IMG/VR virus record: IMGVR_UViG_3300045988_098422
DNA length: 64,000 nucleotides
Source of the DNA: a virus
Reading direction: 5' to 3' (one strand)
Below, one piece after another: positions 47,622-64,000 of this stretch. A program made the position numbers and the translations under genes. The notes below the pieces were generated by a model. The model saw nothing but the letters and a program-made list of their open reading frames with translations. It made no database searches and was not told the origin of the DNA. Position 1 is the first letter of the stretch. The number at the start of each line of letters is the position of its first letter.

Positions 47622-47622
47622 T

Positions 47623-48316: not shown

Positions 48317-48321
48317 TAATT

Positions 48322-48711: not shown

Positions 48712-48981
48712 CAAGAACAGAAAGAAATTTACACATGGGAAAATTTGCTACCGCACATCCCGAAAAGTCGCTAACTTATAGTGAAGCGTATGCGCTGGCT
48801 CAAAAAAGGCGCAAAGATAACTCACCGTTATATGGCAGCTAACGAATGGATGACCGTATTACCGAATGGGCGCATTTGTTTTGAGGACGGATGTGAGCAA
48901 ACTATTGTTGAATTTTGGGCTGCACGTCGCAACCAAACAGGATGGACAGACGGTTGGAGCGTATTTAACGAAGCCAAATAG
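48708..48981 (+). CDS. DUF2829-like protein, frame broken at A6 tract (48802-48807)
   Basis: Frame 0 from ATG 48708 (or 48735) gives ...LTYSEAYALAQK and stops at 48845. Frame +1 (tracked ORF 48781..48981) gives KGAKITHRYMAANEWMTVLPNGRICFEDG... With A5 the two join as SEAYALAQKGAKITHR, resembling the F.EAl.alk.GkkvrR signature. Confidence 0.45.
48802..48807 (+). repeat. A6 tract at frame junction
   Basis: CTC/CAA AAA AGG counted directly. Confidence 0.9.
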
Positions 48982-49039
48982 TGAGGAAAGTGCACGCTTC
49001 ACTATAAGGGTAGATTATTAATAACTAAATTTTAGTAAA

Positions 49040-49661: not shown

Positions 49662-49671
49662 AATCAGATTT

Positions 49672-49691
49672 TCCCGGAAGAAATTCCGGGA
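49672..49691 (+). terminator. terminator hairpin of cassette
   Basis: TCCCGGAA-GAAA-TTCCGGGA then TTTTCTTTG. Confidence 0.7.
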
Positions 49692-49696
49692 TTTTC

Positions 49697-49727
49697 TTTG
49701 ATATGTCAATTAGTCTGCCTACATTTG
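49697..49727 (+). promoter_or_regulatory. Bacteroidota-type promoter in conserved cassette
   Basis: TTTG 49697-700, 19-nt spacer, TACATTTG 49720-27, leader CAGTGTCAATCAATAG. Confidence 0.7.
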
Positions 49728-49768
49728 CAGTGTCAATCAATAGTTATTCACTTTAAAACTCAAATGTT

Positions 49769-50041
49769 ATGGCAAACTTACAAGAATTTCATTTTAGTAC
49801 AGGCGTTAAGCCTTACAGTCACATTCCAGCCGTTCCAGTAGGAAAACATGAATTTGTTGACGGCAACGGTGTAAAGATAATTCGCTTCTATTGTGAAGAT
49901 GTGCCACAGGGCGCACAGTTTCAATTCGCTTCACCTTATCCCAACTGCAAAGAAGCCGCTTATGAACATTGGATTGTTCGTGAAATTGTTGATGGTGGTT
50001 TAGCCTCTAAATATGCTTACTTTTATTTGCCAACGTTATGA
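49769..50041 (+). CDS. hypothetical protein
   Basis: Tracked ORF, 90 aa. Confidence 0.55.
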   Translation: MANLQEFHFSTGVKPYSHIPAVPVGKHEFVDGNGVKIIRFYCEDVPQGAQFQFASPYPNCKEAAYEHWIVREIVDGGLASKYAYFYLPTL

Positions 50042-50223
50042 AGAATACTGTAAAAATTCGCATTACAAAAATGGAATATAAACGTAACTGTGAAAACTTT
50101 TGTAATACGGTTTTAATGTTACGTAAAGCCCGCAATATAGGTGATGAAGAAACGGTTAATCATTACGTATTAAGCCGATTAAACAGCCAGAAAGGAGACA
50201 AATTTGATTTTGAAATTCTTTAA
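50038..50223 (+). CDS. hypothetical protein
   Basis: Tracked ORF, 61 aa, ATGA overlap. Confidence 0.45.
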   Translation: MKNTVKIRITKMEYKRNCENFCNTVLMLRKARNIGDEETVNHYVLSRLNSQKGDKFDFEIL

Positions 50224-50235
50224 TACTAAATAATC

Positions 50236-50484
50236 ATGAAAGCCATTGTAGAAAACCCGCTTTTGGATATGCGTGTCTACGCAGCTAGTTTATTCGTTGA
50301 AATTCTTAACGAAATAACTGCCTGTAAAAACGAAGAAGAATTACGTCGCTGTGTAAGGTTATTAGAAAAACGCCATAAATACGATAAACCAGAATTATCA
50401 TGGTATTTTAAATGGGGCTTCGGTCATAATCATTTTTGGGTGAGTGACCTTAACGGGGTTCGTCTGATATTTGTGGAGTTTTAA
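50236..50484 (+). CDS. hypothetical protein
   Basis: Tracked ORF, 82 aa. Confidence 0.5.
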   Translation: MKAIVENPLLDMRVYAASLFVEILNEITACKNEEELRRCVRLLEKRHKYDKPELSWYFKWGFGHNHFWVSDLNGVRLIFVEF

Positions 50485-50494
50485 GAAACTCCAC
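50473..50494 (+). terminator. hairpin overlapping stop codon
   Basis: GTGGAGTT-TTAAGA-AACTCCAC. Confidence 0.45.
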
Positions 50495-50500
50495 TACTTA

Positions 50501-50511
50501 TGCGTATATTT
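50501..50511 (+). promoter_or_regulatory. TGCGTATATTT motif, copy 1 (candidate second promoter class)
   Basis: Exact 11-mer shared with 53644 and 56825; 35 nt upstream of ATG 50546; no -33 TTG. Confidence 0.4.
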
Positions 50512-50545
50512 CACAAAATTTATTAACTTCCTAAAATAAAGAAAG

Positions 50546-51322
50546 ATGGATTTAAAAGACAAAAGAATTGTATTTGTAGGGCTGGACGATGTGCTTATTA
50601 AAACACATTCTAACAAAGAAAAGCCCGTGGGCGTATGGGACATGGAATTCAACCTGAATGTGTTGGAAAAGCTGAAACAACTCAACCCGATTGCTATCTT
50701 TGTTGTAAGCAACCAACCGGACATTCCTGCCAAATTGCACCCGTCACTGTTCCAAGCGAAGTTCGTGTATGTTATTGCGGCACTTCAGGAATACATTGGT
50801 ATGACGGTTTTCCCCGCTGGACAGTATGCGCCTGAAATGCCAGAGGGCGAAGCTCCTATCGCTATGCCGAATTCGACTATGTTGTTGACAATGTTTAATG
50901 AGTTCCTAGCAACGTCTCGTATGGAGCTTAATAGAGAGGATTGCGTAGTGATTGGTACGGGTGAAGAGTATGCGGGTGCGGCTCAAGCCTTTGGATGTGA
51001 TTATTTGGACGTGGCACATTTGTTGGAAGAAAATTTGGGCGAGCCTCTATTCAAGCTCGTATGGAATATTCCGTCCTACGATTTGGTGATTGACCCCGAA
51101 AATCAAGCTATTATGGAAAATCTACCGTGGGAATTTGCGGTTCACCGTGCGGAACAGATTAACAAGCTGCCATTTAAACAAGCAGATGTCCTTGTCGTGG
51201 CTCAAAAATGGGCAACTCCAAAACCTATGGAACATAAAGAATTTAAAGTAGATGCTCGCAAGTTGTCAAAAGGGGCTCAACGAAAAGTTGCGATGCAAAT
51301 TAAGAAAGGAGGGAAGAAGTAA
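50546..51322 (+). CDS. hypothetical protein; N-terminal HAD-IIIA-like region with non-canonical motif I (tentative)
   Basis: RIVFVGLDDVLIKT ... IFVVSNQPDI resembles PNKP/GmhB phosphatase motifs I and II, but the nucleophile Asp position is Gly. Confidence 0.4.
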   Translation: MDLKDKRIVFVGLDDVLIKTHSNKEKPVGVWDMEFNLNVLEKLKQLNPIAIFVVSNQPDIPAKLHPSLFQAKFVYVIAALQEYIGMTVFPAGQYAPEMPEGEAPIAMPNSTMLLTMFNEFLATSRMELNREDCVVIGTGEEYAGAAQAFGCDYLDVAHLLEENLGEPLFKLVWNIPSYDLVIDPENQAIMENLPWEFAVHRAEQINKLPFKQADVLVVAQKWATPKPMEHKEFKVDARKLSKGAQRKVAMQIKKGGKK

Positions 51323-51957
51323 TGGCTATAATTAACGTAGAACTCCGCATGATGATTGCCGAACGTTTGGCAAATGACAATTACCGTGAAGAAATTAAAG
51401 AGGTAAAAGAATCGTTACGCCTGCACCTATTAGCCTACCTCAAGGAGAATTATATTCCTAAAGAAGTACAAACAGTGTTTGAAAAGTATCCACAGTTTTT
51501 CAAGGCAGTTGAGGCAATTTACATAGCTTCCTACAACTTTAAGAATTATCTGCCTGCTGAATGGGGAAGCCGTACTCATCACGCAGATATTAATTTCCAT
51601 GAAAGTTTGCCCCTAGACAAAGAAGAGGTTTACACTTTACTGAAATCCATTCCTAAAGAAAACTATATCCACGAATTAATGCGCAAGTATTTTAAATTGG
51701 AAATGGACAGGTACTTTATGGAAAAGCGGTTGAAATGTATTATGCAGACCCAACGGTTCACACCAAAGACATTGGAGCAAGACTTTCCAGAGGCTTACAA
51801 AGTGTATTTGGACATTACGACTTCTGATGCTTACGACAGTGCCAAAGAACCAAACGGAGCAACCGCTACCCTCTGTGATAATATTGAAAATATTCGTGCC
51901 CAACTAAAAACGAACAGAAATGTTGAAGAAAAAGTACAAGCCAAGTCGGCTGAATAA
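51322..51957 (+). CDS. hypothetical protein
   Basis: Tracked ORF, 211 aa, TAATG overlap. Confidence 0.55.
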   Translation: MAIINVELRMMIAERLANDNYREEIKEVKESLRLHLLAYLKENYIPKEVQTVFEKYPQFFKAVEAIYIASYNFKNYLPAEWGSRTHHADINFHESLPLDKEEVYTLLKSIPKENYIHELMRKYFKLEMDRYFMEKRLKCIMQTQRFTPKTLEQDFPEAYKVYLDITTSDAYDSAKEPNGATATLCDNIENIRAQLKTNRNVEEKVQAKSAE

Positions 51958-51979
51958 ATGGTACACTAAACACTTCGTT

Positions 51980-52003
51980 CTGACCCCGTGTATGCGGGGT
52001 CAG
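51980..52003 (+). terminator. hairpin (9-bp perfect stem)
   Basis: CTGACCCCG-TGTATG-CGGGGTCAG; no T-run. Confidence 0.45.
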
Positions 52004-52042
52004 GCAGAAGTTACTGAAGTAGTGCTCGTTTGGTGGTGTTTT

Positions 52043-52270
52043 ATGTCGTTTTTATATAACGATAGTTTGCTCAATATAATTTGTGCGCATGGCGCAACCT
52101 TTATAGAAATATTAAAGAAGGAAAATGACACCTATACGCAACAATTTGTTTTTAATGCTAATGGTGAAACTATGTGTATTCCGTCCAGTAAAGGGCGAAG
52201 AGAAAGATATTTCAAACAAATCAACGGGATTATTTACGAAATTACGTATGATACCCCACCTGATGAATAA
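52043..52270 (+). CDS. hypothetical protein
   Basis: Start moved to ATG 52043 because tracked start 51920 overlaps the upstream gene and reads through the hairpin. Confidence 0.45.
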   Translation: MSFLYNDSLLNIICAHGATFIEILKKENDTYTQQFVFNANGETMCIPSSKGRRERYFKQINGIIYEITYDTPPDE

Positions 52271-52289
52271 CAATTAAATATCAACGATT

Positions 52290-52667
52290 ATGCTAATTTA
52301 TTTGAATGGAATACCCCTGCAAGGTAATGCACACGATGCACGGGTTCAATCCGCATTACCTTTGTCACGTATTGTTGAAGTGACGGAAGTGGAACAAATA
52401 CCTCGTTTTGGTGACAAATGGGTGTTTAGTATTCGTCTTGATGATGGGCAAGTTGTGTGCTCTGAACCTTGCGAAACTCAACAAGAGGCTGAAATGCACC
52501 AATTGTCCACAGTAAGTCAAATTAATGCTTTAGAAGTGTACGAGCACCGTTTAAAATGTGATTTGCCCGTGTCAAACATTGCTTGTCATTATGTGGATGT
52601 AGCTAAAAAACAATTGATACAATTTTCGTTAGACCCGTTGTATCCAGTATTCACTATTAAAATTTAA
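52290..52667 (+). CDS. hypothetical protein
   Basis: Tracked ORF, 125 aa. Confidence 0.5.
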   Translation: MLIYLNGIPLQGNAHDARVQSALPLSRIVEVTEVEQIPRFGDKWVFSIRLDDGQVVCSEPCETQQEAEMHQLSTVSQINALEVYEHRLKCDLPVSNIACHYVDVAKKQLIQFSLDPLYPVFTIKI

Positions 52668-52671
52668 TTTC

Positions 52672-53520
52672 ATGGAAGTAGTAAAATATGTTATAGCCTA
52701 TCAATTTTTGCCCGGAAAATTACCCAGATATATATCACGTTCTGTAAGCGTTGACGAAAGTCTTGATGCTGATGTTATGCTCCATCTTTGTGAAGTATTT
52801 GTAAACAGAGAAGAAACGACGGATGCAAGATACTTCGGCAAGCCTTATATTATTGGGGCTTTCACTAACAATTCAAAATTTCCTAATTTTTGCTTTGCAT
52901 GTAACACAAACGCTGATTTGAGTATTTGCCGCACATGCAAAATGAAGAAACAGGCGTTGCAGGCTTTAAAAGAGCAAGAGACTCCTGATAATTTAGGTCA
53001 GGAAGAAGAACAGAAAAACCAAAGTTTTGACCCGAATAATACGCCAAAAGAAAGAATGAAAGAGCCGTATTATTGCTTCGTTTACGAAGGAACATTTATG
53101 AAGATGTCAGAAAATGGTGACAATCCTCCTATCAGCAAGCTAATATTGAAATTTTACGAAAAGAAGCCTCTTGTTCTTAACGAATGGTTGCAGAACAAAT
53201 TCAAGGAAGAATTTGAAAAACAACAAAAAGAATTCGGCTGGAGCTTGGTAGGTTTGACCCTCGTTAATGTTGAGCCAACAGGCAGTTATTCTGACCCCTC
53301 GTGTTTCCACCCTAACGAACCTTACAGAATGTATTGGGTACGTGTGCAGGATATGTCTCAGAAAGAGGGCGGTGTAAACTGGATTCCAGGATTTGAACAG
53401 AACGGTAAAATGTGGAGTGTTATCGGTGAATTACTTGACCCCGACAGCCCAGATGACACCCGTCCTTTTAAGGATTCACCTTTTGAAGATTACGTAGTAG
53501 TCCGTAAACCTGGAAATTAG
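52672..53520 (+). CDS. hypothetical protein
   Basis: Tracked ORF, 282 aa; CFACN..CRTC Cys pairs. Confidence 0.55.
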   Translation: MEVVKYVIAYQFLPGKLPRYISRSVSVDESLDADVMLHLCEVFVNREETTDARYFGKPYIIGAFTNNSKFPNFCFACNTNADLSICRTCKMKKQALQALKEQETPDNLGQEEEQKNQSFDPNNTPKERMKEPYYCFVYEGTFMKMSENGDNPPISKLILKFYEKKPLVLNEWLQNKFKEEFEKQQKEFGWSLVGLTLVNVEPTGSYSDPSCFHPNEPYRMYWVRVQDMSQKEGGVNWIPGFEQNGKMWSVIGELLDPDSPDDTRPFKDSPFEDYVVVRKPGN

Positions 53521-53542
53521 CCCTCTATTGCCATTTTATATT

Positions 53543-53575
53543 GAGCACCGGACAATTGCTTCGGTGCTCTTTTTA
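53543..53575 (+). terminator. rho-independent terminator
   Basis: GAGCACCG-11 nt-CGGTGCTC then TTTTTATTT. Confidence 0.7.
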
Positions 53576-53643
53576 TTTGCCTGTATAGACGCTTAAAATG
53601 CGTTATGTTTTGTGGAACTTCTTTTGTGTTGACTGATGAAAAT

Positions 53644-53654
53644 TGCGTATATTT
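53644..53654 (+). promoter_or_regulatory. TGCGTATATTT motif, copy 2
   Basis: Exact 11-mer; 55 nt upstream of ATG 53709; flanked by related AAAATGCGT repeats at about 53597 and 53668. Confidence 0.4.
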
Positions 53655-53708
53655 ACACACTCTTAAAAATGCGTAGAAGAGTTAGTATTAACTTAAAATT
53701 ATCAAATC

Positions 53709-54596
53709 ATGTACAAAGACTTTGTAAATGTAACCCCTGAAAGCGGTGGCGCAGGCACTACTCCGATAGCTGTTGCCGCTGATGAAAACGAAGGAGCTGC
53801 ACGCAGCACTTCACTCAATATTGCGGGTGGCGGTGTGACACGAACTGTCTCTATCACTCAAAAGAAAATGCTTGTGGAAAACCAAATTGAAGTTAAATAT
53901 TGGTTAGACGCAGCAACTAGCGGGACAGGCAAGTCAATTTATTTGGAAGCCTATGCAAACAATGATGTAGCAAGCAACCTGAAAATTAACTTTAGCATTG
54001 ACCAACAGGGACCGACAGGCGAATGGGAAACCAACACTCCAGTAGAAATACTGATAAATACTGGAGATAACGCTTCCACAACTTATGAAATTCCATATTA
54101 TGATTACGGATGGCGTTTTCATGAAGAAGTGGCTACTATTACCCCTTCTCAAGATGAAGATTTTATTTATGATTTTGCAGGATTCATTGAAGAATTTAGG
54201 GCTCCAGAAATTGGTATCTGGAAAATAAACACGCTTACAGGAGAACCAAATGGAGGAGAAGCAACAAACCCATCAGCCGTTTATCAAGTTTCTTCAAACG
54301 CTGACTTCAAAAAAGTTTTGACTTTTGCTTCTTTGGGTGGAGTTACTTTTTATGATGAAAGCGGTTTAGCAAGTATGACACTTACTTGGTTACAAATCCA
54401 ATATTCAGATGAAATTGGGCAAAAGCCATACGCTATTTCTGTTCGGGGTGGCTTTACAGGAGTATCAGAATTAAACACTATGCTTTGGAGTGGTAAATTC
54501 CAAAATGGAGTTATTAATGCAACTTATCAAGCCCAATTTAAAATAGATGGCGTTATTCGCAATTTTAAATGGCGAATTCAAGGAGCACACATTTAA
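53709..54596 (+). CDS. poly-G paralog family member E (no tract; GG encoded GGT GGC; constitutively in frame)
   Basis: MYKDFVNVTPESGGAGTTPIAVAADENEGAARSTSLNIAGGG; 295 aa, longer divergent C-domain. Confidence 0.75.
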   Translation: MYKDFVNVTPESGGAGTTPIAVAADENEGAARSTSLNIAGGGVTRTVSITQKKMLVENQIEVKYWLDAATSGTGKSIYLEAYANNDVASNLKINFSIDQQGPTGEWETNTPVEILINTGDNASTTYEIPYYDYGWRFHEEVATITPSQDEDFIYDFAGFIEEFRAPEIGIWKINTLTGEPNGGEATNPSAVYQVSSNADFKKVLTFASLGGVTFYDESGLASMTLTWLQIQYSDEIGQKPYAISVRGGFTGVSELNTMLWSGKFQNGVINATYQAQFKIDGVIRNFKWRIQGAHI

Positions 54597-54608
54597 CGTA
54601 TAAATAAC

Positions 54609-54626
54609 GGGGAACTCCGGTTCCCC
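54609..54626 (+). terminator. terminator hairpin
   Basis: GGGGAAC-TCCG-GTTCCCC. Confidence 0.6.
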
Positions 54627-54652
54627 TATTGTTTCACTTAATAATTATAATT

Positions 54653-55304
54653 ATGAAGAAAGATTTTGTAACAATTACCCCAGATACGGGGGGGGGGCTC
54701 GGCTACTCCACAAGTAACCGCTGAACCCAATGTGACGGCACAGTCACGCTCAACAACTCTCAATTTTGATGCCAACGGAAAGCAGCTTAAATCCGTTCAA
54801 GTCAATCAACTCGGTATTCCATGGTTCATAAATGTGTGTACCGCCATTCAGGGCGAAATAACTGAAGCCAATACAAACGTCGGACATTCTTTAAAAGAAG
54901 TGGATTTTTCGCCTAGTGGCGATGGTGGTAGTATGCCAAATATTCCATTCTTTCAGTATGATTTTGAAATAAATAATTTCAATTACACCAGTAAGACGGT
55001 TTGGTATTTAGCTCTGGAAGCTAATATATTAGGTACTTTGATTGATACCAATACGGAATATTTAATTCTGGAATTTGATTTAGGCAAAGGAGATGGGTGG
55101 GAACGAATGGAATTTATGTGGGAAAATACCTTTGAGGGCTATCAATATTGGCGCAATACGACACCCAACGTTTACCCCAATGAATATCCGACAGTTAAAA
55201 CTGTCCAAATGCGAGTTGGAATTGGTGATAATACTGACCCAGAGCCTATTCATACTTATCTTGCTCAATTTACAGTAAATATCGTATTAAGCCCCCGACC
55301 CTAG
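54653..55304 (+). CDS. poly-G paralog family member C (G10, frame-shifted OFF as written)
   Basis: ATG 54653 gives MKKDFVTITPDTGGGLGYSTSNR then stop. With G9 it reads TGGGSATPQVTAEPNVTAQSRSTTLNFDANGKQLK, in frame with tracked ORF 54732..55304. Confidence 0.7.
54688..54697 (+). repeat. G10 homopolymer
   Basis: atacGGG GGGGGGGctc counted directly. Confidence 0.95.
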
Positions 55305-55339
55305 CGTAGCCAACATGATTTGATTACGCATTTGGATAA

Positions 55340-55357
55340 GCCGGAAAATTTTCCGGC
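55340..55357 (+). terminator. terminator hairpin of cassette
   Basis: GCCGGAAAATTTTCCGGC (identical to 30605) then TTTTTCTTTG. Confidence 0.75.
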
Positions 55358-55363
55358 TTTTTC

Positions 55364-55394
55364 TTTGCCAATCCAATTTATCTGCCTATCTTTG
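55364..55394 (+). promoter_or_regulatory. Bacteroidota-type promoter in conserved cassette
   Basis: TTTG 55364-67, 19-nt spacer, TATCTTTG 55387-94, leader GGGTGTCAAATTAAAA. Confidence 0.7.
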
Positions 55395-55410
55395 GGGTGT
55401 CAAATTAAAA

Positions 55411-55701
55411 ATGGATTTAGTTATGGAAGTACAAGTAGTTAAAACAACAGTAAAAGCCGCAGCTGGAGTTAAAGAAACGAATTATGCTGCAATTATAAAC
55501 AAGTATTGTAGACAAATCGGTTTCATTACTGATGATGGTATTTATTTAGAACTTTATGACCAAAACCTAAGAGGTTTTGGTATAGGTAGTTTTCAGAAAA
55601 TAGATACAGGCGATGCCAAACCGTTTAGATGGTTATGCAAAATAGTAGAAGATAATTGGGACGCTATGTACGACCGCTATACTTTGGCGATAAAAGGATA
55701 A
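55411..55701 (+). CDS. hypothetical protein
   Basis: Tracked ORF, 96 aa. Confidence 0.55.
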   Translation: MDLVMEVQVVKTTVKAAAGVKETNYAAIINKYCRQIGFITDDGIYLELYDQNLRGFGIGSFQKIDTGDAKPFRWLCKIVEDNWDAMYDRYTLAIKG

Positions 55702-55874
55702 GGAAAGATATTTAGATATACGTATAATAGACGTTGACATAACATTATTTTATTATTTAAGCGAATACTTTTTGTATTTTACCCGAAGCGTCGGGGTTAA
55801 CAAGATGAAACCCGTGAGGGCGGATATTGTCGTAGTAACACGAGTTTTAAAGATTATGTTTATTGATTGGCATG

Positions 55875-55896
55875 GGGCGGAGAATATTCTCCGCCC
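55875..55896 (+). terminator. terminator hairpin
   Basis: GGGCGGAGAATATTCTCCGCCC perfect 22-nt palindrome then TTGCTTTTT. Confidence 0.7.
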
Positions 55897-55927
55897 TTGC
55901 TTTTTCAAAGAAATTGATTTACCTTTG
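55897..55927 (+). promoter_or_regulatory. Bacteroidota-type promoter
   Basis: TTG 55897-99, 20-nt spacer, TACCTTTG 55920-27. Confidence 0.65.
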
Positions 55928-55944
55928 TATTTTAAACAACCAAA

Positions 55945-56400
55945 ATGATGAGACCTTTAGTAATAGTTGGAACCTGCAAAGAATTGCATAAGTGCGCTCG
56001 GTTGCTTGACAGGTTTGGATATATACCTGTCAATTGCCGGATACCTACGTGTGACAATCACGATGGGGGTTTCATTATACTCAATCGTGAGGGCGAGTTT
56101 AGGTTCTCAACATGCAATTTGTACGCAAATTTGGACTGCATGGTAACAGCCTCTGACTTCCTAAAGAATTACGGGGGTTTAGGAATACGCAGCCCGTACA
56201 GCCTAAAGAACATCTATTTTGCCTGCACACTTGGTTTGTTGGTTATGGGTATGGAAGGAAGCCTTCCTGTCGGTAGAATGTGGCTATTGGCTTTCTTTGC
56301 TATTAATATACCACTACATTTTAAAACGATTAAAACATGGTTTACACATGGGAAAGAAAGAAGATTTGGAAAGAGAAGAGCAAAAGCTGATAAAGATTAA
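55945..56400 (+). CDS. hypothetical membrane protein
   Basis: Tracked ORF, 151 aa; C-terminal TM segments IYFACTLGLLVMGM, WLLAFFAINIPL. Confidence 0.5.
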   Translation: MMRPLVIVGTCKELHKCARLLDRFGYIPVNCRIPTCDNHDGGFIILNREGEFRFSTCNLYANLDCMVTASDFLKNYGGLGIRSPYSLKNIYFACTLGLLVMGMEGSLPVGRMWLLAFFAINIPLHFKTIKTWFTHGKERRFGKRRAKADKD

Positions 56401-56824
56401 GTTATTGCTCGTAAAGGATTTTGAAGAACTGGATAAGGGGGAGTTACAAGTATTGCGTAACTACACCCGTGAAGTGTACCACATTGCGGGTGAAATAAAA
56501 TTGGGAGTAAATGAGTTGCTTAATGCTTATCTAATTTTTAAACGCAAGTTTATCACCACTTTGGAAACTGTTGCGGTATGTCCTTATCCGATGATAGAAG
56601 CGGGCGGGAGCTTCGTAGCTGCACAAACTACGTATGCCCCAATAGCTGTTACGACATTTGACGGAGTTTTTAGCTCTTCTAAGGAAACTTTTACTATTAA
56701 CGGATGGCAAAGTTTACCCGTACTCACAGTGTTCTATTTTGACGACAGTACCGAGGTGTGTTGTCTTGCTCCTAATGGACATTTTTGCCGGATAACGAGC
56801 AAGACTTTGCAGTTTGATATATAA
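56348..56824 (+). CDS. hypothetical protein
   Basis: First ATG (56348, MGKKEDLEREE) of tracked ORF 56219..56824 that gives a protein-like N-terminus; 53-nt overlap with the upstream gene remains. Confidence 0.4.
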   Translation: MGKKEDLEREEQKLIKIKLLLVKDFEELDKGELQVLRNYTREVYHIAGEIKLGVNELLNAYLIFKRKFITTLETVAVCPYPMIEAGGSFVAAQTTYAPIAVTTFDGVFSSSKETFTINGWQSLPVLTVFYFDDSTEVCCLAPNGHFCRITSKTLQFDI

Positions 56825-56835
56825 TGCGTATATTT
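56825..56835 (+). promoter_or_regulatory. TGCGTATATTT motif, copy 3
   Basis: Exact 11-mer, here followed by G (TATATTTG); 137 nt upstream of ATG 56972. Confidence 0.4.
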
Positions 56836-56881
56836 GTTGCATCAGTCATGAATGAATAAAGTTGAAATGGTGTTTGAAGGC

Positions 56882-56920
56882 GAGCCGCTTTGAGTAGTGA
56901 TACTAGAGGCGGCTCTTTTT
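56882..56920 (+). terminator. rho-independent terminator (long loop)
   Basis: GAGCCGC-20 nt-GCGGCTC then TTTTT. Confidence 0.5.
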
Positions 56921-56932
56921 AACGTATAATCA

Positions 56933-56953
56933 ATGACACGGCTACCGTGTCAT
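56933..56953 (+). other. perfect 9-bp hairpin just upstream of paralog D
   Basis: ATGACACGG-CTA-CCGTGTCAT. Confidence 0.5.
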
Positions 56954-56971
56954 AACTTAAATATTTTAGAT

Positions 56972-57594
56972 ATGAAGAAAGATTTTATTACTGTAACCCC
57001 TGAATCGGGGGGGGGGCAGGCACAACAGTAAACGTTGTTGCTGACCCTAATTTTGGCTCTATGCCTAGAAAAACAACCTTAAATTTTGCGGCAAATGGGC
57101 AACCGCTTAACAAAGGAATAGAAGTTTCTCAAATAGGAAGTTTCTTTCAATTATTTGCTTTTCCCAACTTTACTTTAGCAACAACCTCACCCAATCAACA
57201 GTACATGTTGAAAATGTTTTTGGATAGTTTGGACTATGATGAGGTTGAATTTCAAGGACAAACTTTTAATGTTCCTTATTATGGGGTACAAACTACCAAA
57301 GCCACGGGAGTAACTCTGTATGATGCCTTCTTAGACTTCCATTTATTATTTTCCACAGAAGCAATTAATAGCTTACAAATCACTGAATTTGTGGCTGATG
57401 TTGAATCAAATAATGGAGGGGTAAGCACTGTGTCTTTAACGCCCGCCCAAGTAGAAACAAATTTGGGTGTGTCAGAATTTACACTAAGCACTAAATCACT
57501 TAGTGGATTACAAACTTTGCATCAGGTCACTTTTTATGCCATTATAAACAATGCGAAAGTGCAAATTTGCAGAGTAGGAAATGCCGTTAGATAA
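56972..57594 (+). CDS. poly-G paralog family member D (G10, frame-shifted OFF as written)
   Basis: ATG 56972 gives MKKDFITVTPESGGGQAQQ then stop. With G11 (or G8) it reads SGG(G)AGTTVNVVADPNFGSMPRKTTLNFAANGQPLNK, in frame with tracked ORF 57061..57594. Confidence 0.7.
57007..57016 (+). repeat. G10 homopolymer
   Basis: aatcGGGG GGGGGGcagg counted directly. Confidence 0.95.
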
Positions 57595-57621
57595 TCTGAT
57601 TTGATAATTCTACGCATAAAA

Positions 57622-57648
57622 GAAGCCCGTTTCACAACGGGCTTTCTT
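57622..57648. terminator. bidirectional terminator between convergent + and - genes
   Basis: GAAGCCCGT-TTCACA-ACGGGCTTTC. Confidence 0.6.
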
Positions 57649-57710
57649 CGTCATAATCCATGATTATGGAAATAAAAGGAATTATTCTAAGAGATATTGT
57701 GTATCAGTAC

Positions 57711-57887
57711 CTAAAAGTATAATGGAGTAATCAATTTTTCTGCCACTTCATCATCATACCAACCACCACGCTTGCACCATTCAACCGGAACTTTTGGGTC
57801 TTCAAGAGGCAGACCTAAATCTTTTGCAACAGCTTCAAGTTCTGCCTTACATCCTTCAACTGTTGGTTTTCTATCAAATTGTTTCAT
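57711..57887 (-). CDS. small hypothetical protein (58 aa, below ORF-track cutoff), third gene of minus-strand cassette
   Basis: Hand-translated MKQFDRKPTVEGCKAELEAVAKDLGLPLEDPKVPVEWCKRGGWYDDEVAEKLITPLYF; ATGA overlap with the stop of the upstream minus-strand gene. Confidence 0.5.
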   Translation of the reverse strand: MKQFDRKPTVEGCKAELEAVAKDLGLPLEDPKVPVEWCKRGGWYDDEVAEKLITPLYF

Positions 57888-58456
57888 GATTTAAGAAGTT
57901 CTTTATATTCATCAATAGGGAAATACATACGCCCAAACTTTTCAGCCCACTTTTCAGGATAAATAGTAACGTACTTGTCATGGTCATGAATAGTGGCACA
58001 GGCGATGATACTTGGTAGCCCAATAATTAGCAAGTAGAACCACCCTGACCAACGGGAATTAATGTGATGCCCGTATTCGTGGCTAGCCGTATCCAATCTG
58101 TTGTAAGCCACCTCACTAATGAGGATAAAGTGACCGAGTGTGACGCTACTCGTACCGCCCTTTTTAAAGTAAAAAGCACCCCCACAGTACCCAATGTACC
58201 GCCAACGTGTGAAAATGGCTAATAGAAGCCCTAAGAGGCTTTGTGGCAGCATCCAAACAATGAGCAACAGGTGCACCAACACACAAGTGAGTTTCCCTTT
58301 CGGGTTGAACAGTGGAAAATCATCCTTTGTGACATCCACGCAAAAATTTTCATTCTGGGCGGTTTTGAAATCTTCGTGACCGCTTGCAGTCTTAGTTTGT
58401 AGTTTTTCTTTCATAAGCCAATAATTTTCGGCAAATTTACAAATTATTTTTCTCAA
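57884..58456 (-). CDS. membrane protein with HExxH zincin motif
   Basis: TM LTCVLVHLLLIVWMLPQSLLGLLLAIF, SHEYGHHINS, TM WFYLLIIGLPSIIACATI; alternative start 58414. Confidence 0.55.
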   Translation of the reverse strand: MRKIICKFAENYWLMKEKLQTKTASGHEDFKTAQNENFCVDVTKDDFPLFNPKGKLTCVLVHLLLIVWMLPQSLLGLLLAIFTRWRYIGYCGGAFYFKKGGTSSVTLGHFILISEVAYNRLDTASHEYGHHINSRWSGWFYLLIIGLPSIIACATIHDHDKYVTIYPEKWAEKFGRMYFPIDEYKELLKS

Positions 58457-58982
58457 TAAAATCCTCTACTTCACTGTCAGTAGCGGGTCTAATCTTTAGG
58501 ATATTCAGGTTATCCAAGTCAGATTGTAAAATAGGAAAAGGCAACCGAGTCCGTCCTGACGGAGTAATATACCACCTGTTTTCGTCATCTCGCAAAAGGA
58601 TGGTATCTGGCGTATCTTCGTCTACAAAGATTTCATCAGTGTAGGCTAACACCATTTCTGACCATTCCTTTTCTAGTCCTTCTTTTGGTGCTCGGTTCAG
58701 CCCTGTTCCACTGCCTAGTTTGGGGTTAAGGAAATCTTCTTTGGTTGGTGCAGGTGTTCCACTACCTTGCAAACCTGTTAGGAGAGTGGTGGTGTGATGT
58801 TGTGCGTTTTCCGCAGTAAGACGGGTCACCTCTGCCACTAGTTGCTCTTCTCTGATAGCGTAGTCATTCACTTCACGTTGGAGCTCCCTAATTTGTTTGT
58901 CCTTAACAAATATCTGTTTTTGTAGGCGGTCAATTTCCGCTTCCAAATTTAATTTCTGCAATATTTTTTCCTTTTCTGGCAT
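58437..58982 (-). CDS. coiled-coil hypothetical protein, first gene of minus-strand cassette
   Basis: Tracked ORF, 181 aa; N-terminal heptad-like LQKLNLEAEIDRLQKQIFVKDKQIRELQREV. Confidence 0.55.
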   Translation of the reverse strand: MPEKEKILQKLNLEAEIDRLQKQIFVKDKQIRELQREVNDYAIREEQLVAEVTRLTAENAQHHTTTLLTGLQGSGTPAPTKEDFLNPKLGSGTGLNRAPKEGLEKEWSEMVLAYTDEIFVDEDTPDTILLRDDENRWYITPSGRTRLPFPILQSDLDNLNILKIRPATDSEVEDFIEKNNL

Positions 58983-59580
58983 AATCTTTTTGGATTGTTA
59001 CAGAGCTTATACGTTGTCGGGGTTTATCTTTCCAAGACTTTTAGGAATCACCGCTGAGGATTTTTGTCGTAAGGGGGCTCCAGGGGTTTCTTTATATTAT
59101 TTATTTAACAGTGAATGAGGTATTACGTAGTAATACCGAAATGAGCTAGTAAATAAATAATATTTTATTATCATGATAATCAATTGATTGGGATTGACGT
59201 GCGTACGCGAGGCTCTTCCCAACCCCTTGTGCACGTGTATGTGAGGGGGCGTGCATGGACATGAGGACTGGACAGATAGGAAATATGGACTGACACCACG
59301 ATGATGCGTATAAGGGTCAAAAGCCAATTGGGAGCGTCACATCTGTGGCACTATCGGCTCCGGTAACTAGGCTCATGCAGATATTGACTTCAGGTTTATC
59401 TCACATTTGTCTTGTTTGAATTTTTAAGATTTGTTTTTATTTGACATTGATTGGGGCAGGGGGCGCACAGCCCCCAACTCTTGCCCGTTTCCCACCTAAT
59501 TAGACAGGACGTTTAGGAATTACCCAAATTTTATGTATCTTTACACCGATTAAATTGTTTTGAACTAAAACTTTAAAGAT
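58983..59580. other. about 600-nt divergent non-coding region with GC-rich core
   Basis: No credible ORF. AT-rich flanks surround a GC-rich core at about 59195-59370. Hairpin GGGGGC-GCACA-GCCCCC lies at about 59457-59473. Confidence 0.5.
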
Positions 59581-59931
59581 ATGAAAACAGTTTCACAAAA
59601 AGTAGAGGGTTTCCTTTATAAAACAGCTTTAGCAAATCCGGGAGGCATCCCAGTTCCGGTGTCTATCCAAAGAGCTTTTGCGGTGGGTGTTCCAACAGAA
59701 GATGTAACCGCTCAAAGTTTCGAGCCTGACACAATGCAACAGCCGGAAGGATTTTTGATAATCCCGTTAAAAGCGGGTACGGTGAAAGTGCATTTGGTTG
59801 GAGCTTCCACTTTTGAGGACTACACAATTAGTGAAGCAGAAATTTCTGCTTGGATTGGAAAACCAACTCCTTATCTGGTTGACAAAGTGTACAAAGATGG
59901 GACAACAGCCGAATTGAATATTGGATGGTAA
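59581..59931 (+). CDS. hypothetical protein (start of probable virion module)
   Basis: Tracked ORF, 116 aa. Confidence 0.55.
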   Translation: MKTVSQKVEGFLYKTALANPGGIPVPVSIQRAFAVGVPTEDVTAQSFEPDTMQQPEGFLIIPLKAGTVKVHLVGASTFEDYTISEAEISAWIGKPTPYLVDKVYKDGTTAELNIGW

Positions 59932-59949
59932 AATTAAAATAAGACAAGT

Positions 59950-61047
59950 ATGGAAAAGAAAATTTCTTTGGCTACATTTGAACAAGTAGCCGCAGATAAT
60001 GGTTATGAAGTGTTTACCGCTGAAGAGGTAGCCGCATATTACAAAGATGGCTTGCAGAAAAGCATGAAGAATGAATTAACTTCTGATGAAAAGGAGTTGT
60101 TTGCGGCTGACATTGCTTTCTTACAAAAAGCCGTTTGTGTTGATGAGAATGGTAAAGAGGTGACACGTTATTTCCGTCCGGAACAGGTTAACTGGGAAAA
60201 GACAGAAGATGGCGTGTTGTTGAAAGGTATTGCCGGAGTTTTTGCTGATACTCCTACTAACAGAAAATTGAATCGTGTTGGAGAGGCTTTTGTGCCTTCA
60301 CCGGATTTTATGAAGTCCTTGGAAAGCGAGGAAATTAACGAAGACATTATTAAAGCCATGAGAACAGGGCGTTACGCTGATACTCCTGAAAATCGTCGCT
60401 TACACCGTGTCGGTCAGCCCTATGCAAAGCGTGAGGGTAAAGGTACAGAAGAAACCGACAAAGAAAAGAAGCGTATTGGTGACACAAAAGCCGAAATTGA
60501 GAAGCTGGATGCCAAGTATGGTAAAGTATATACCGCTCTTGGAAAACGCAAACAAGAGGCTTTAGAGAGGGGCGATAAGGCAGAGGCAAAACGTATGTCG
60601 GAAGCCATTACCAGAATGGAAAATGAACACGATGCCGAAGTAGCTAAACTTAAAGAAAAAGAGGGTGGTGAAAAAGGTGACGAAAAACTACACGTAAAAG
60701 CCGACGAACGTAAAGGTGGCGAAAAGGGTGATAAAAAGCTACATGAGGAAGCTGAAAAGAAAAAGAAAGAGCCCAATCCGGGTTCCAAGAAAAATCCTTT
60801 GAAGATAGACAGCATTAAGGATATTCACAAAGATGCAGCCTATCAGAAAATTACCATTGACGGTCACGAAGCTACTATTGTGAACCGTGGCACATACGAC
60901 GAAGATACTCACAAGCCGATATATTATGTTGAAGCAGGCAGTCAGACGCACGCATATACAGGCTTGGACATGCTGAAAGAAAAGATTGAGGAATTTGTGC
61001 GTGTTGCCAATGGTGGAAAGGCAGACAGTGACGATAAAAAAAAGTGA
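59950..61047 (+). CDS. hypothetical Lys/Glu-rich protein with two ADTPxNRxLxRVG motifs (scaffold/internal-protein-like)
   Basis: FADTPTNRKLNRVGEAF and YADTPENRRLHRVGQPY; tandem KGGEKGD-KLH repeat; ends in GAT AAA AAA AAG TGA. Confidence 0.6.
   Translation: MEKKISLATFEQVAADNGYEVFTAEEVAAYYKDGLQKSMKNELTSDEKELFAADIAFLQKAVCVDENGKEVTRYFRPEQVNWEKTEDGVLLKGIAGVFADTPTNRKLNRVGEAFVPSPDFMKSLESEEINEDIIKAMRTGRYADTPENRRLHRVGQPYAKREGKGTEETDKEKKRIGDTKAEIEKLDAKYGKVYTALGKRKQEALERGDKAEAKRMSEAITRMENEHDAEVAKLKEKEGGEKGDEKLHVKADERKGGEKGDKKLHEEAEKKKKEPNPGSKKNPLKIDSIKDIHKDAAYQKITIDGHEATIVNRGTYDEDTHKPIYYVEAGSQTHAYTGLDMLKEKIEEFVRVANGGKADSDDKKK
61036..61043 (+). repeat. A8 homopolymer / A AAA AAG heptamer at gene end
   Basis: gatAAAAAAAAgtga counted directly. 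Confidence 0.95.
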
Positions 61048-61321
61048 AGTAACACCCTCTGACGCATCCAAATCTTTCTTTGAAAGCAAATTTAAGAATT
61101 TGAAATGGAAGGATGGAGGTGATAAAGATTACCCAAGTGTTGTCGCTCACAAGAAATTTAGAGGCGTGCCTATTGATATAGAAATTGATGAAGATGGGCA
61201 GGGAGAAATTATTATTGGTGATGCCGACGAAGGAATTGAGTTTGGGGCACTTACATCTGAAAAAGCCGCAAAGGAACTTTGGGATACTATTTTAGAGGAA
61301 CTTGAATATTACGAGGACTAA
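61043..61321 (+). CDS. 92-codon ORF in the +1 frame with no start codon of its own after the A8 tract: candidate recoded C-terminal extension
   Basis: SEVTPSDASKSFFESKFKNLKWKDGG...ILEELEYYED contains no Met. The only ATGs of tracked ORF 60986..61321 lie 38-62 nt inside the upstream gene and give a non-protein-like peptide. Confidence 0.45.
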   Translation, partial: SEVTPSDASKSFFESKFKNLKWKDGGDKDYPSVVAHKKFRGVPIDIEIDEDGQGEIIIGDADEGIEFGALTSEKAAKELWDTILEELEYYED

Positions 61322-61332
61322 AATTAAGAAAA

Positions 61333-61575
61333 ATGGAAGATTTATTAATGAAATCAGTGAATAAACATTACTTTCCTGAAAAGGAACGTAAAGAGCTAGC
61401 CAAAGAGGGCGAAGCCATGCCAGATGGTTCTTTTCCTATTCGTAATGAACAAGACTTGAAGGACGCCATACGTAGTGTCGGTAGAGCTAAAGACCCCGCA
61501 GCCGCTAGACGGTGGATAAAGAAGCGTGCCAAAGAAATGGGTAAAGAGGCAACGTTACCGGAAGATTGGAAATAA
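61333..61575 (+). CDS. conserved small phage protein
   Basis: Tracked ORF, 80 aa; AMPDGSFPIRNEQDLKDAIRSVGRA motif seen in many phage proteins (recollection). Confidence 0.55.
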   Translation: MEDLLMKSVNKHYFPEKERKELAKEGEAMPDGSFPIRNEQDLKDAIRSVGRAKDPAAARRWIKKRAKEMGKEATLPEDWK

Positions 61576-61599
61576 TTTAAGAATTTCGGTGGCACTATC

Positions 61600-61630
61600 T
61601 GGGATATTCGTTTTTAAATGTTTATCTTTG
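61600..61630 (+). promoter_or_regulatory. variant cassette promoter (TGG / TATCTTTG)
   Basis: TGG 61600-02, 20-nt spacer, TATCTTTG 61623-30; upstream TTAAGAATTTCGGTGGCACTATC arm. Confidence 0.5.
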
Positions 61631-61656
61631 TAGTGCCACTTTAATTTTGATTAGAT

Positions 61657-63483
61657 ATGGACGATATAGAAAAATCACGCCACGGTCGGTATGAAGACAA
61701 CGCTAAGAACAGGCGGCTTCATCGTGTAGGTCAAGAATATGGCAGTAAGAAGCAGGAAGACGAAACTGTTGACCCTAGCAAATTAACTCTTGACCAATTA
61801 CATAAGGAAATCAATGAGTTGGGGCACATATTAGGCGGTAGGATTAAGGATGGTAGACGTACAGAAGATGTAGAAAAGCGTATTTCTGATTTGCTTAAAT
61901 ATGCTCCCGATAAGGTATTGGAAAGCACCTTAGAAGCTCTTAGGACAAATGTCAAGCCAAACCCGACCGCAAAAATTGCCGCCAAACTGACGGAAATGGA
62001 AATTAACCGTCGCAAAACAGAGGGTTCTGCAAAACAGACTGAAAAGAAAGAGGAAACTCCTAAGGAAGAGCCAAAAGCTCAATCTGAAGAGCCTGAAACA
62101 TATACCCGTGTGAAGTTTGATGATGTGCCTCAAAGCGGAAAGGTAAATCTTAAGAAATACCTTTCTAATAAAATTAGGGCGGAGGTTGACAAGGCTTGGA
62201 AAGACAAGGCTAAAATCGGTGACAAAACTTTGCAGGACATGGAAAAGGGTATGGTCGCAGAGTTTAACAAAAACTTTGACAATCTAAGCAAGTCAAAACG
62301 AGCCGAAGCCCTGTACAGTATTATGACGGTTAAGGCAGAAATAGCCCGTCGGGGTAGAGGGGCTAAAAACGAGGAAAAACAAGGTGAGCAGCTTGCATCT
62401 AAACAGGAAACTCCAACGGAAAAGCCTAAAGTAGACTATAAGAAACCTGAATCCTTTAATGAGCTTTACACCAGAGTTCGAAACACATGGTCGGATATTA
62501 TGGAAACAAAGCCCAAGGAAGTAGATTTTACTAAGCCTAAAGAAGTGGCTGAAATGGCTTCTGCATTTTTTCCTGGAACAACTATATCTAAAGTAGACGG
62601 TGAAGAAGAATATATGGTTCAATATCCTGGGGATGCAAGTAGGTTTATGCGTATTGATAAATATACGAGTTCTCCTAAAGCCTTGAATGATAAAATAAGG
62701 ATGTTTTTATCTATGGATATGGACATGCGCACTAGACAGAATTTTTCAAATGATGAAAAAGAAAAATTTGATAGGATATTTGCGCTAGTTGCGGAAAGTG
62801 TGGCTGATAGGGCACTTGTTAAAGATATGAACGTTGCCCGCACAAAAGCATTTGAAGAACAGGTTGATGAAAACAATAGGAATATTTCAAGGAATGTTAG
62901 GGTAAGAAAGGGTAAACCGATGAGCTTTGAGGAAGCTAATCAAGGTCGTGGAAATCCTAAATATCGTTCTGATGAACTTTTTCGTATAAACTGTCAAACA
63001 TGTGTGGTAATTCATGAATTGCGATTAAGAGGATTTGATTTGGGTGCGAAGCCAAAAACAAGTTCTGCACAATTTGCAATGGCAAAAGATTCCTCCTATG
63101 CTTGGATAGACCCGTTGACAGGGCAGCAACCCGAAGCTGTGAGAATAACTTGTGCCCCAGAGAATAAAGTAATTAAGGTCAGAAAAAGCCAGAAATCAAA
63201 GTCGGATTTACGTAAAAATATTTTAGAAGCTACAAAAGAGGTAGGACGTTATAATTTTTCTTATGGATGGGAAAACGGTAAGGATAGTTCTGGACATATC
63301 ATAACCGCTGAAAGGCACGCTGATGGGAATTTGACATTTTACGACCCTCAAAATGGGAAGAGCGTGCCTATGGTAGAATTATTGGATGAGGTTAGTCCTA
63401 AATATTTGTGCAGGATAATTCGAGTAGATAATTTGCTTATTAAACCGGATATTGTTAAAGATTACGCAATGCAATATGAGTAA
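61657..63483 (+). CDS. large multidomain protein; N-terminal NRRLHRVG motif, C-terminal predicted papain-fold Cys-His-Asp domain
   Basis: GRYEDNAKNRRLHRVGQEYG at the N-terminus; C-terminus RINCQTCVVIHELRLRG ... SSGHIITAERHADGNLTFYDPQNG. Confidence 0.55.
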   Translation: MDDIEKSRHGRYEDNAKNRRLHRVGQEYGSKKQEDETVDPSKLTLDQLHKEINELGHILGGRIKDGRRTEDVEKRISDLLKYAPDKVLESTLEALRTNVKPNPTAKIAAKLTEMEINRRKTEGSAKQTEKKEETPKEEPKAQSEEPETYTRVKFDDVPQSGKVNLKKYLSNKIRAEVDKAWKDKAKIGDKTLQDMEKGMVAEFNKNFDNLSKSKRAEALYSIMTVKAEIARRGRGAKNEEKQGEQLASKQETPTEKPKVDYKKPESFNELYTRVRNTWSDIMETKPKEVDFTKPKEVAEMASAFFPGTTISKVDGEEEYMVQYPGDASRFMRIDKYTSSPKALNDKIRMFLSMDMDMRTRQNFSNDEKEKFDRIFALVAESVADRALVKDMNVARTKAFEEQVDENNRNISRNVRVRKGKPMSFEEANQGRGNPKYRSDELFRINCQTCVVIHELRLRGFDLGAKPKTSSAQFAMAKDSSYAWIDPLTGQQPEAVRITCAPENKVIKVRKSQKSKSDLRKNILEATKEVGRYNFSYGWENGKDSSGHIITAERHADGNLTFYDPQNGKSVPMVELLDEVSPKYLCRIIRVDNLLIKPDIVKDYAMQYE

Positions 63484-63484
63484 A

Positions 63485-63739
63485 ATGACAGAAGAGGTAA
63501 CTCGGGCGATAGCCACGAAGTTCCTAACAAGACCAGAAGATTTTGAATTGACTAAAGAAGAAAACTACAAAAATTATGTAGTCTATTTTGCGGCTTATAA
63601 AGAGGCGAACGGAAATGCAAATTATGGACTTCCTATTTTTGTGTTGATTGATGAATTGGGCAAAGCCCGATTTGCCGAACCTGACGAAACTCGTAAATTA
63701 ATGAGGCGTTGGGATGATAAGGGTGAGGAAGAGGACTAG
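63485..63739 (+). CDS. hypothetical protein
   Basis: Start moved to ATG 63485, 1 nt after the previous stop. Confidence 0.5.
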   Translation: MTEEVTRAIATKFLTRPEDFELTKEENYKNYVVYFAAYKEANGNANYGLPIFVLIDELGKARFAEPDETRKLMRRWDDKGEEED

Positions 63740-63743
63740 CGGC

Positions 63744-63774
63744 TTTCCAATTTACTCTTTTTATTATACATTTG
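63744..63774 (+). promoter_or_regulatory. variant promoter (TTTC / TACATTTG)
   Basis: TACATTTG 63767-74; -33 position reads TTTC. Confidence 0.4.
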
Positions 63775-63808
63775 TACCGTTTAAAGGTAGAACTAAAACA
63801 TAGAAAAG

Positions 63809-64000
63809 ATGAAGAAATATGTTTATTCAAAAGGTGAAGAAACAGTAACCGTTGAAACCGATGGTCTAGCGGCTATCAATAATTTTATGGTGACAGGTCT
63901 TATCGGTCAGAATTACGGTGGGTTGGTACACGCTGGATTGGCTTTTAAGATGGGTGATACAGTAAGCATTCCGGAAATGCTGAATGCGGCTAAAAGATGT
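63809..64000 (+). CDS. hypothetical protein, 3' partial (runs off window)
   Basis: ATG 63809 then 64 open codons to the window end (MKKYVYSKGEETVTVETDGLAAINNFMVTGLIGQNYGG...); preceded by a promoter-like box. Confidence 0.5.
   Translation, partial: MKKYVYSKGEETVTVETDGLAAINNFMVTGLIGQNYGGLVHAGLAFKMGDTVSIPEMLNAAKRC

Follow-up and report, generated by a model that had tools for sequence, protein, structure and literature searches.

The poly-G tract of paralog D and its sister genes

Positions 56972–57594 of the window, by which we mean the whole 64,000-nucleotide stretch of IMG/VR virus record IMGVR_UViG_3300045988_098422, hold paralog D, one of five related phage genes (A to E), with a run of ten guanines near its 5′ end. 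The frame opened by ATG 56972 reads ...CCT GAA TCG GGG GGG GGG CAG GCA CAA CAG TAA, as given in the preliminary description of this locus, and closes after 19 codons. In this state the segment 56972–57031 (plus strand, as are all features below unless stated otherwise) comprises 11 conserved codons (MKKDFITVTPE), S-G-G-G from the tract, QAQQ, and the TAA at 57029–57031. The tract at 57007–57016 is exactly G10 in the sequence and leaves D out of frame (OFF), again as first described. It occupies nucleotides 36–45 of the open reading frame (ORF), and D thus has a homopolymer of at least about seven residues near the 5′ end, a feature of contingency loci. The body of the gene (57017–57594, stop codon at 57592–57594) lies in the +1 frame relative to the ATG. 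Gene calling places an ORF of 177 amino acids (aa) at 57061–57594, starting from an internal ATG; this ORF is the tail of the D frame.

In-silico editing of the tract gave the two corrections that had been proposed for D, G8 and G11. The G8 edit yields 206 aa, MKKDFITVTPESGGAGTTVNVVADPNFGSMPRKTTLNFAANGQPLNK..., including ...ESGGAGTTVNVV..., and the G11 edit yields 207 aa with ESGGGAGTT...; the G9, G10, and G12 edits yield 19–24 aa only. D is ON at G5, G8, and G11 and OFF at G7, G9, and G10. Gain or loss of a single G toggles the gene between a full-length and a short product and leaves the rest of the frame intact, as expected of a contingency locus. The G8 version reproduces the ESGGAGTT string of the tract-free paralog E, a match already pointed out from the letters, and the same version is met naturally in two related loci described below (L112 and L113). 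Paralog E reads MYKDFVNVTPESGGAGTT and encodes ESGGAGTT without a tract, as AGC GGT GGC GCA.

The other family members repeat this arrangement at the same codons. Paralog A (27329–27946) carries G8 at 27365–27372, is in frame with 205 aa, and is ON in most database copies. Paralogs B (49040–49661) and C (54653–55304) carry G10 at 49075–49084 and 54688–54697, respectively, and both are OFF, B with a TGA directly after the tract; each is restored by G9 or G12 upon in-silico editing. Paralog E (53709–54596, 295 aa) is tract-free and always in frame. All four long G runs begin at nucleotide 36–37 of paralogous ORFs that start ATGAAGAAAGATTT.

Long G runs in the window and in related loci

Across the window, G5 occurs 38 times, G6 and G7 not at all, G8 once, and G10 three times, and the longest C run is 5. 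The four tracts, which occupy equivalent Gly-Gly-Gly loop codons, account for every G or C run of at least six within the 64 kb. Overlapping G8 matches number 10 against 0.8 expected, a count reached in 0 of 100 shuffles. G6 and G7 runs are absent where an extrapolated geometric decay predicts about 13, and because these lengths are missing, the sequence suggests that long or slippery G/C runs are selected against outside this gene family, named the BACON genes after the domain described below.

The same concentration is seen in 1.08 Mb of related loci, in which 140 of the 175 runs of G7 or longer fall within 45 nucleotides (nt) of an MxKDF start. About 15 more distinct contexts of G7 or longer map to another Gly loop within the same domain. 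This second tract (G7–G10) is located ~120 nt into the gene, at the ...TLNFSA-GGG... loop of other family members (at 3121 in L005, L015, L021, and L006, 3124 in L007, and 3125 in L031; also in L066, L077, L078, and others). In some genes a single domain thus holds two switches, so that ON/OFF calls for the cassettes classed as "other" may be wrong.

Natural variation in tract length

Syntenic loci (L-numbers) were recovered from independent assemblies in Logan, ENA, JGI, and IMG/VR, and every family start was tabulated. For D, alleles were compared on flanks identical to those of the window, cctgaatc|caggcacaac. On these flanks we found G5 (ON, 204 aa; L032), G7 (OFF; L048), G8 (ON with ESGGAGTT, 205 aa, P0020; L112 and L113), G9 (OFF; L044 and L049–L052), and G10 (OFF; the window, L042, L043, and L045–L047). 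D thus shows length polymorphism among close relatives with conserved flanks, a further hallmark of contingency loci. In related loci, B occurs with G6, G7, G8, G9, G10, and G12, and C with G6, G7, G8, G9, and G10. Seven backgrounds share the same flanks and the same last 170 aa and differ in tract length, implying that length changes in the tract outpace every amino-acid substitution in the gene.

Alignment of 13 diverged relatives to the window revealed several length alleles at the poly-G sites and at one poly-A site, each within a single homopolymer. The other indels are mostly one recurring event or paired compensating indels, although a few non-homopolymer regions likewise occur with several indel lengths. 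Interrupted tracts are also present, namely GGGGAGGGG (L010), GGGGAGGGGGG (L008), and G-E-G in P0072, P0083, P0086, and P0090; these look like locked-ON alleles. Over all paralogs tabulated, about one third of the distinct tract-bearing alleles are in frame, which is the share that free length drift would give; relative to such drift, D is ON less often and A more often.

These lengths bear on whether the out-of-frame tracts are real or are sequencing or assembly artefacts in which homopolymer miscalls conceal one fixed in-frame length. Several platforms are prone to homopolymer errors, the most frequent call is G10 with G11 and longer nearly absent, and some source contigs have low coverage. 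The preliminary description had argued that no single miscount repairs all three OFF genes, B and C needing −1 G and D needing +1 or −2, and had leaned toward real length variation; these opposite corrections hold, and the same-flank D lengths of 5, 7, 8, 9, and 10 support this view. Its worry that three identical G10 calls might reflect saturation has been removed: saturation at 10 is ruled out by the calls of 5 to 12 for D, B, and C in other assemblies, which span several assemblers and archives (Logan, SPAdes "NODE", MEGAHIT "k141", and JGI). L042, a Logan assembly of run SRR341632, corresponds to window positions 46972–64000 over 16,940 aligned bases with no mismatch or gap, the three G10 tracts included; because an independent assembly reproduces them, the G10 calls are not the product of one assembler. 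A 32x-coverage contig (of L085) likewise has C at G10, OFF. Moreover, A is in frame in most of its 1766 cluster members, which argues that G8–G9 runs are not generally miscalled, and both the depletion of G6/G7 and the interrupted alleles are evolutionary signatures rather than read errors. We therefore regard a purely technical origin as very unlikely.

Paralog D is maintained in its restored frame

In ten diverged orthologs, the restored D frame contains no stop codon and evolves with a ratio of nonsynonymous to synonymous substitution rates (dN/dS) of ~0.2 (0.15–0.30) at dS 0.15–1.05. Comparison of the 12 pre-tract codons between the window and L033 shows four changes, all synonymous by reading (GAT/GAC, ATT/ATC, ACT/ACA, and CCT/CCC). 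That only synonymous changes have accumulated upstream of the tract indicates that ATG 56972 is used and translated. Four orthologs (L038, L041, L039, and L036) have T, V, or A in place of the internal methionine at 57061. Since this residue is not conserved, the 177-aa product is not the functional form, and the internal-ATG protein was rejected as a real product; the ORF at 57061 is an artefact of the OFF state and not a true start.

Database clusters of the paralogs, which hold 70 to 1766 member sequences, mirror these states. The D cluster consists mostly of 176/177-aa proteins with a few of 204/205 aa. In the C cluster most products have 190 aa, compared with 216 aa for the full form, and the B cluster contains 152- and 162-aa products against a full form of 206 aa. 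The A cluster is mostly 205 aa, its full length.

A broken frame in the window and in most database copies, together with an orphan C-terminal domain, could also mean that D, B, and C are dead duplicates, decaying after a frameshift. We consider this highly improbable. A dN/dS of ~0.2, sustained over dS up to ~1 with the frame intact and zero stops in the ten orthologs, shows that D is not a pseudogene; in addition, the sole lesion always lies at the tract, and ON alleles exist.

Frame distribution of OFF alleles

The OFF alleles of B and D differ in how they are distributed between frames, and this distribution bears on programmed recoding. Under that explanation the out-of-frame tract would be intended, and full-length protein would be supplied at a low set ratio, either through slippage of RNA polymerase on the G run or through frameshifting by the ribosome, by −1 at G GGG GGG in D and by +1 in B and C. 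Ten identical bases are slippery for polymerases in general, and most natural alleles are OFF even though purifying selection acts on the downstream frame. Paralog B may fit this expectation. Of its 20 OFF alleles, 19 fall in one frame (G7 or G10), G8 and G9 are rare, and the skew is met on three independent backgrounds; it goes beyond what simple drift explains. In the tgac-flank alleles of B, the window's included, TGA-C follows directly after the last GGG. This GGG-TGA-C context resembles CUU-UGA-C, the +1 frameshift site of prfB. In the window's B (segment 49075–49125), a stable hairpin stands directly 3′ of the tract (−19.1 kcal/mol, z = −3.2).

Paralog D shows a different pattern. Its two OFF frames are about equally represented, 6 distinct samples having G7/G10, with the window and its twin L042 taken as one, and 5 having G9; the D sample was gathered via the truncated product P0012, which biases it toward OFF but not between the two OFF frames. 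In-frame G5 and G8 alleles occur on the same D background. The presence of both OFF frames and of in-frame alleles argues that D has no conserved frame relation of the kind that a programmed shift needs. RNA structure after the D tract is not significant (z = −0.67). In B, the cgac-flank G7/G10 alleles are without an immediate stop. Across the family, interrupted in-frame alleles are viable. Programmed recoding is thus an unlikely explanation overall, while leaky expression through polymerase or ribosome slippage may operate on top of mutational switching, a possibility that merits attention chiefly at B.

A BACON handle with exchangeable C-terminal domains

The five paralogs have in common an N-terminal BACON domain of ~55 aa, followed by unrelated C-terminal domains of ~150 aa. 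Frame-corrected D matches PF13004 (BACON) over residues 3–54 with 26.4 bits, above the Pfam gathering cut-off of 25 bits; A (32.0), B (25.4), and C (27.4) also pass, and E (24.6) falls just under it. The match begins at profile position 9–10 of 61, and the tract codes for a conserved Gly-Gly(-Gly) loop at residues 13–15. The body of D therefore comprises the remainder of the BACON-like N-terminal domain and a lineage-specific, beta-rich C-terminal domain of ~150 aa. Past about residue 60–95 the paralogs are unrelated in sequence, and comparison of A-type and D-type profiles detected homology over residues 1–94 only. A weak match to the BACON-like module of GH16 structure 8va4 was also obtained. 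The C-terminal domain of D is restricted to 3 representative clusters in an exhaustive phmmer search of 1.84 billion proteins; in IMG/VR, the exact D flanks gave no match and the C-terminal cassette is rare.

An AlphaFold2 (AF2) model of paralog A, built from a family-wide alignment (predicted local distance difference test [pLDDT] score, 73.5), consists of two beta-sandwich domains. Structurally it lies closest to three proteins of 195–211 aa from an uncultured gut myovirus, all named "BACON domain-containing protein" (E = 2e-11, template modeling [TM] score 0.5–0.6). Matches of the A model in the PDB are generic Ig-like or RhoGDI-type sandwiches with E above 1e-3, and they point to no specific function.

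P0082 has the N-terminal handle of A and P0087 that of C, each with a different C-terminal domain, and P0002 joins the N-terminus of C to the C-terminus of D at the C locus of L034, L035, and L038. Shared handles with differing C-termini imply that the family evolves by cassette exchange, and these sequences indicate recombination between paralogs inside the conserved 5′ region. The hybrid gene lies at 7761–8378 in L034, 1079–1696 in L035, and 9769–10387 in L038, to be compared with 54653–57594 of the window; the D locus is absent from these relatives.

Paralog D as a candidate poly-G contingency locus

We propose that the G10 run of D is a hypermutable homopolymeric tract, that is, a poly-G contingency locus, a reading that the comparative sequence evidence makes probable. 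Slipped-strand mispairing during phage DNA replication would add or remove G's. Only lengths of 3n+2 (G5, G8, G11) join ATG 56972 to the body of more than 200 codons (ON), and the remaining lengths stop translation after 18–24 codons (OFF), the window representing an OFF allele. The Gly-Gly-Gly loop tolerates one, two, or three glycines, so that in-frame length changes would be harmless. A, B, and C have this arrangement at the equivalent codons, and each would switch on its own; a population would then be a mixture of up to 16 expression combinations. We infer both that replication slippage is the cause and that mixed lengths exist inside one population.

The encoded proteins are presumably virion-exposed binding or adhesion modules, in which the variable C-terminal domains would give different specificities. 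A BACON Ig-like domain combined with a variable beta-sandwich, an MKKDF... N-terminus in which no signal peptide is visible by eye, and the phage context all suggest such a role. A stochastic repertoire of this kind could serve as bet-hedging against variable Bacteroidota host surfaces or the gut environment.

Several observations weigh against this proposal or qualify it. The tract lengths come from consensus assemblies only. Among the 15 listed of the 70 members of the D cluster, ~74 contigs are OFF and 3 are ON; these are fewer ON copies than free drift predicts, a shortfall that requires an additional effect of selection or mutational bias. Lengths peak at G10, with hardly any alleles of G11 or more, a pattern that could reflect a biological equilibrium or be partly technical. 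On the protein side, the AF2 model of the D ortholog P0001 (8 sequences) is poor (pLDDT 55). Searches against PHROGs returned no match for A, B, D, or E and, for C, one sub-threshold match to a family of unknown function. The A–E genes also lie outside the recognisable structural module, and the putative function is read from fold and domain type only. Further searches were likewise sparse in matches: five neighbouring ORFs scanned against PHROGs gave no family, neither A nor D had a tblastn match among 50,697 phage records, and megablast of the region against GenBank phages gave one 179-bp match only.

A more elaborate version, possible but in our judgement doubtful, would be a combinatorial display in which BACON handles present swappable binding domains, each under one or two poly-G switches, so that bursts differ in their sets of adhesins or receptor-binding proteins, and in which the predominant out-of-frame lengths are partly read through by slippage to give a low basal dose. 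Such a display would be the viral counterpart of phase-variable capsules in Bacteroides. Candidate read-through sites would be the tgac-flank G7/G10 alleles of B, followed by TGA-C, and the A7–A11 run at 61037 described below.

Relation to known switching systems

That bacteria achieve phase variation through homopolymer slippage is textbook knowledge, and the modal tract lengths of Campylobacter jejuni are 9–10 G, like those found here. Among phages, such variation is known to be documented by experiment only in Campylobacter Fletchervirus, with a recent proposal for T-even phages. Bacterial simple-sequence-repeat contingency loci include the poly-G genes of C. jejuni and the repeats of Haemophilus and Neisseria (PMC11868660, PMC4235727). 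The proposed D switch shares with them a 5′-proximal homopolymer, slipped-strand mispairing, and reversible ON/OFF states, and their typical targets are surface or interaction proteins. Unlike these loci, it is virus-borne and copied by a phage-encoded polymerase; switching would therefore occur per burst and not per cell division.

The closest phage precedent considered here is Campylobacter Fletchervirus, for which poly-G tracts of 7–11 are reported in receptor-binding protein genes (Sorensen et al. 2021, Cell Rep 35:109214). In that account, as in the window, G tracts lie inside phage ORFs, several genes per genome are affected, and tract length toggles the frame. The Fletchervirus result is mixed phage populations, which are likewise predicted here. 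The present case differs in concerning a DnaE-encoding, Bacteroidota-type gut phage with another host phylum and another protein family, and in placing the tract in a fixed Gly loop of a BACON domain within a paralog family with swappable C-terminal domains. The Fletchervirus proteins are receptor-binding, whereas the binding role here is putative. No homology of A–E to Fletchervirus proteins was detected in PHROGs, or for A and D in tblastn against the 50,697 phage records, and the likeness is one of mechanism only.

Contingency loci have also been reported in T2, T4, and other phages, with poly-G tracts listed for BPP-1 and PB1-like phages (Gomez, Barrick and Waters, bioRxiv 10.1101/2025.10.21.683753). 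These share with our system repeats in phage genes, reversible frameshifts, and the concept of bet-hedging. The T2/T4 loci affect coliphage genes of many functional classes (agt, rIIA) and were shown experimentally; the window differs in its long G8–G10 tracts and dedicated paralog family, for which the evidence is comparative. Diversity-generating retroelements (BPP-1 mtd) and the Mu G segment are functional analogues, being phage devices that diversify a binding protein within a population. Unlike them, the present system involves no reverse transcriptase or invertase, and its output is ON/OFF rather than sequence diversification.

BACON-domain proteins occur in crAssphage and other gut phages (de Jonge et al. 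2019; Pfam PF13004 and PF19190), and a role of the domain in adhering to glycans or cells has been proposed (Benler 2021, PMC8008677). The proteins described here resemble those of crAssphage in having a BACON Ig-like domain in a gut Bacteroidota phage; crAssphage-type proteins are large with tandem BACON repeats, whereas ours are ~205 aa with one N-terminal BACON-like domain and one variable domain. A full-text literature search returned no paper linking BACON proteins or gut Bacteroidota phages with homopolymer switching. The mechanism would thus be known, and the phage lineage, host phylum, and protein family would be new. Added features are the placement of the switch in Gly loops of a shared domain, its repetition over paralogs, and its combination with C-terminal cassette exchange.

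The comparative evidence supports a switch of this type in an uncultured phage found commonly in metagenomes of the human gut. If the proposal is correct, gut phage populations would be phenotypically mixed in putative adhesion or host-recognition proteins, with consequences for host-range prediction, gut phage persistence, and phage therapy design. Gene callers would systematically mis-annotate such genes as truncated proteins of 150–190 aa, and poly-G length at the four loci would provide a population marker in existing metagenomic reads.

The phage and neighbouring features

The window belongs to a human-gut phage of Bacteroidota type and ~108 kb; related contigs from human-gut metagenomes measure 105–110 kb. 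It codes for a DnaE-type polymerase with PHP and pol3-alpha domains, SbcC, an SbcD-like protein, RecA, an NAD-dependent ligase, SF1/SF2 helicases, ribonucleotide reductase, GroEL, and RNase H. DnaE matches Tenacibaculum, Cellulophaga phiST, Chryseobacterium, and Bacteroides phages at 30–39% identity, the best matches being to the Tenacibaculum and Cellulophaga phiST group (39%). The phage thus has the phiST-related DnaE in a module with SF1/SF2 helicases, SbcCD, and RecA that characterizes the proposed "Gratiaviridae", a group predicted to infect Bacteroides and Parabacteroides (Benler 2021, PMC8008677). TerL is encoded beyond the window. A portal gene lies ~7 kb downstream of D in syntenic relatives. 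Neither tRNAs nor Rfam families were found in the window.

Around D, a hairpin followed by U5 (56882–56920, −22.1 kcal/mol, z = −4.2) is terminator-like and ends the upstream gene. A 9-bp hairpin lies in the D leader, 19 nt 5′ of the ATG (56933–56953, z = −3.8), and a third hairpin, terminator-like on both strands, separates D from convergent minus-strand genes (57620–57648, z = −3.6). Because terminator-like hairpins stand on both sides, D and each sister gene appear to form their own transcription units. A sigma-70 promoter scan was uninformative (38 sites versus 29 expected). By eye, TAnnTTTG sequences (Bacteroidota-type −7 motifs) were seen at 49718–49725 and 55392–55399, just past the B and C terminators, and at 56831–56838, upstream of the hairpin preceding D; directly upstream of D none was seen by eye. 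These motifs, seen by eye and without statistics, fit a Bacteroidota host.

A second length-variable homopolymer is A8 at 61037–61044; no other A run in the window exceeds 6. It sits at the end of the ORF 59950–61047, which overlaps the ORF 60986–61321, and occurs as A7, A8, A9, A10, or A11 in relatives with identical flanks. By-hand reading places a TGA directly after the run at A8 and A11, giving 365/366 aa; A7 and A10 would fuse the gene with the next ORF (...KKKSEVTPSDASKSFF...), which fits the 457-aa products in L038, L043, L047, and L049. This run could be another contingency locus or a slippage site.

Elsewhere in the window, a GIY-YIG and NUMOD3 homing-endonuclease-like ORF (4362–5018) directly follows the DnaE gene (898–4365), and a zeta-toxin-like kinase domain lies at 12559–13665. 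Upstream of the portal region, 61657–63483 encodes a 608-aa protein with a C-terminal papain-fold glutamine-deamidase toxin domain (PF15644, E = 7e-15).

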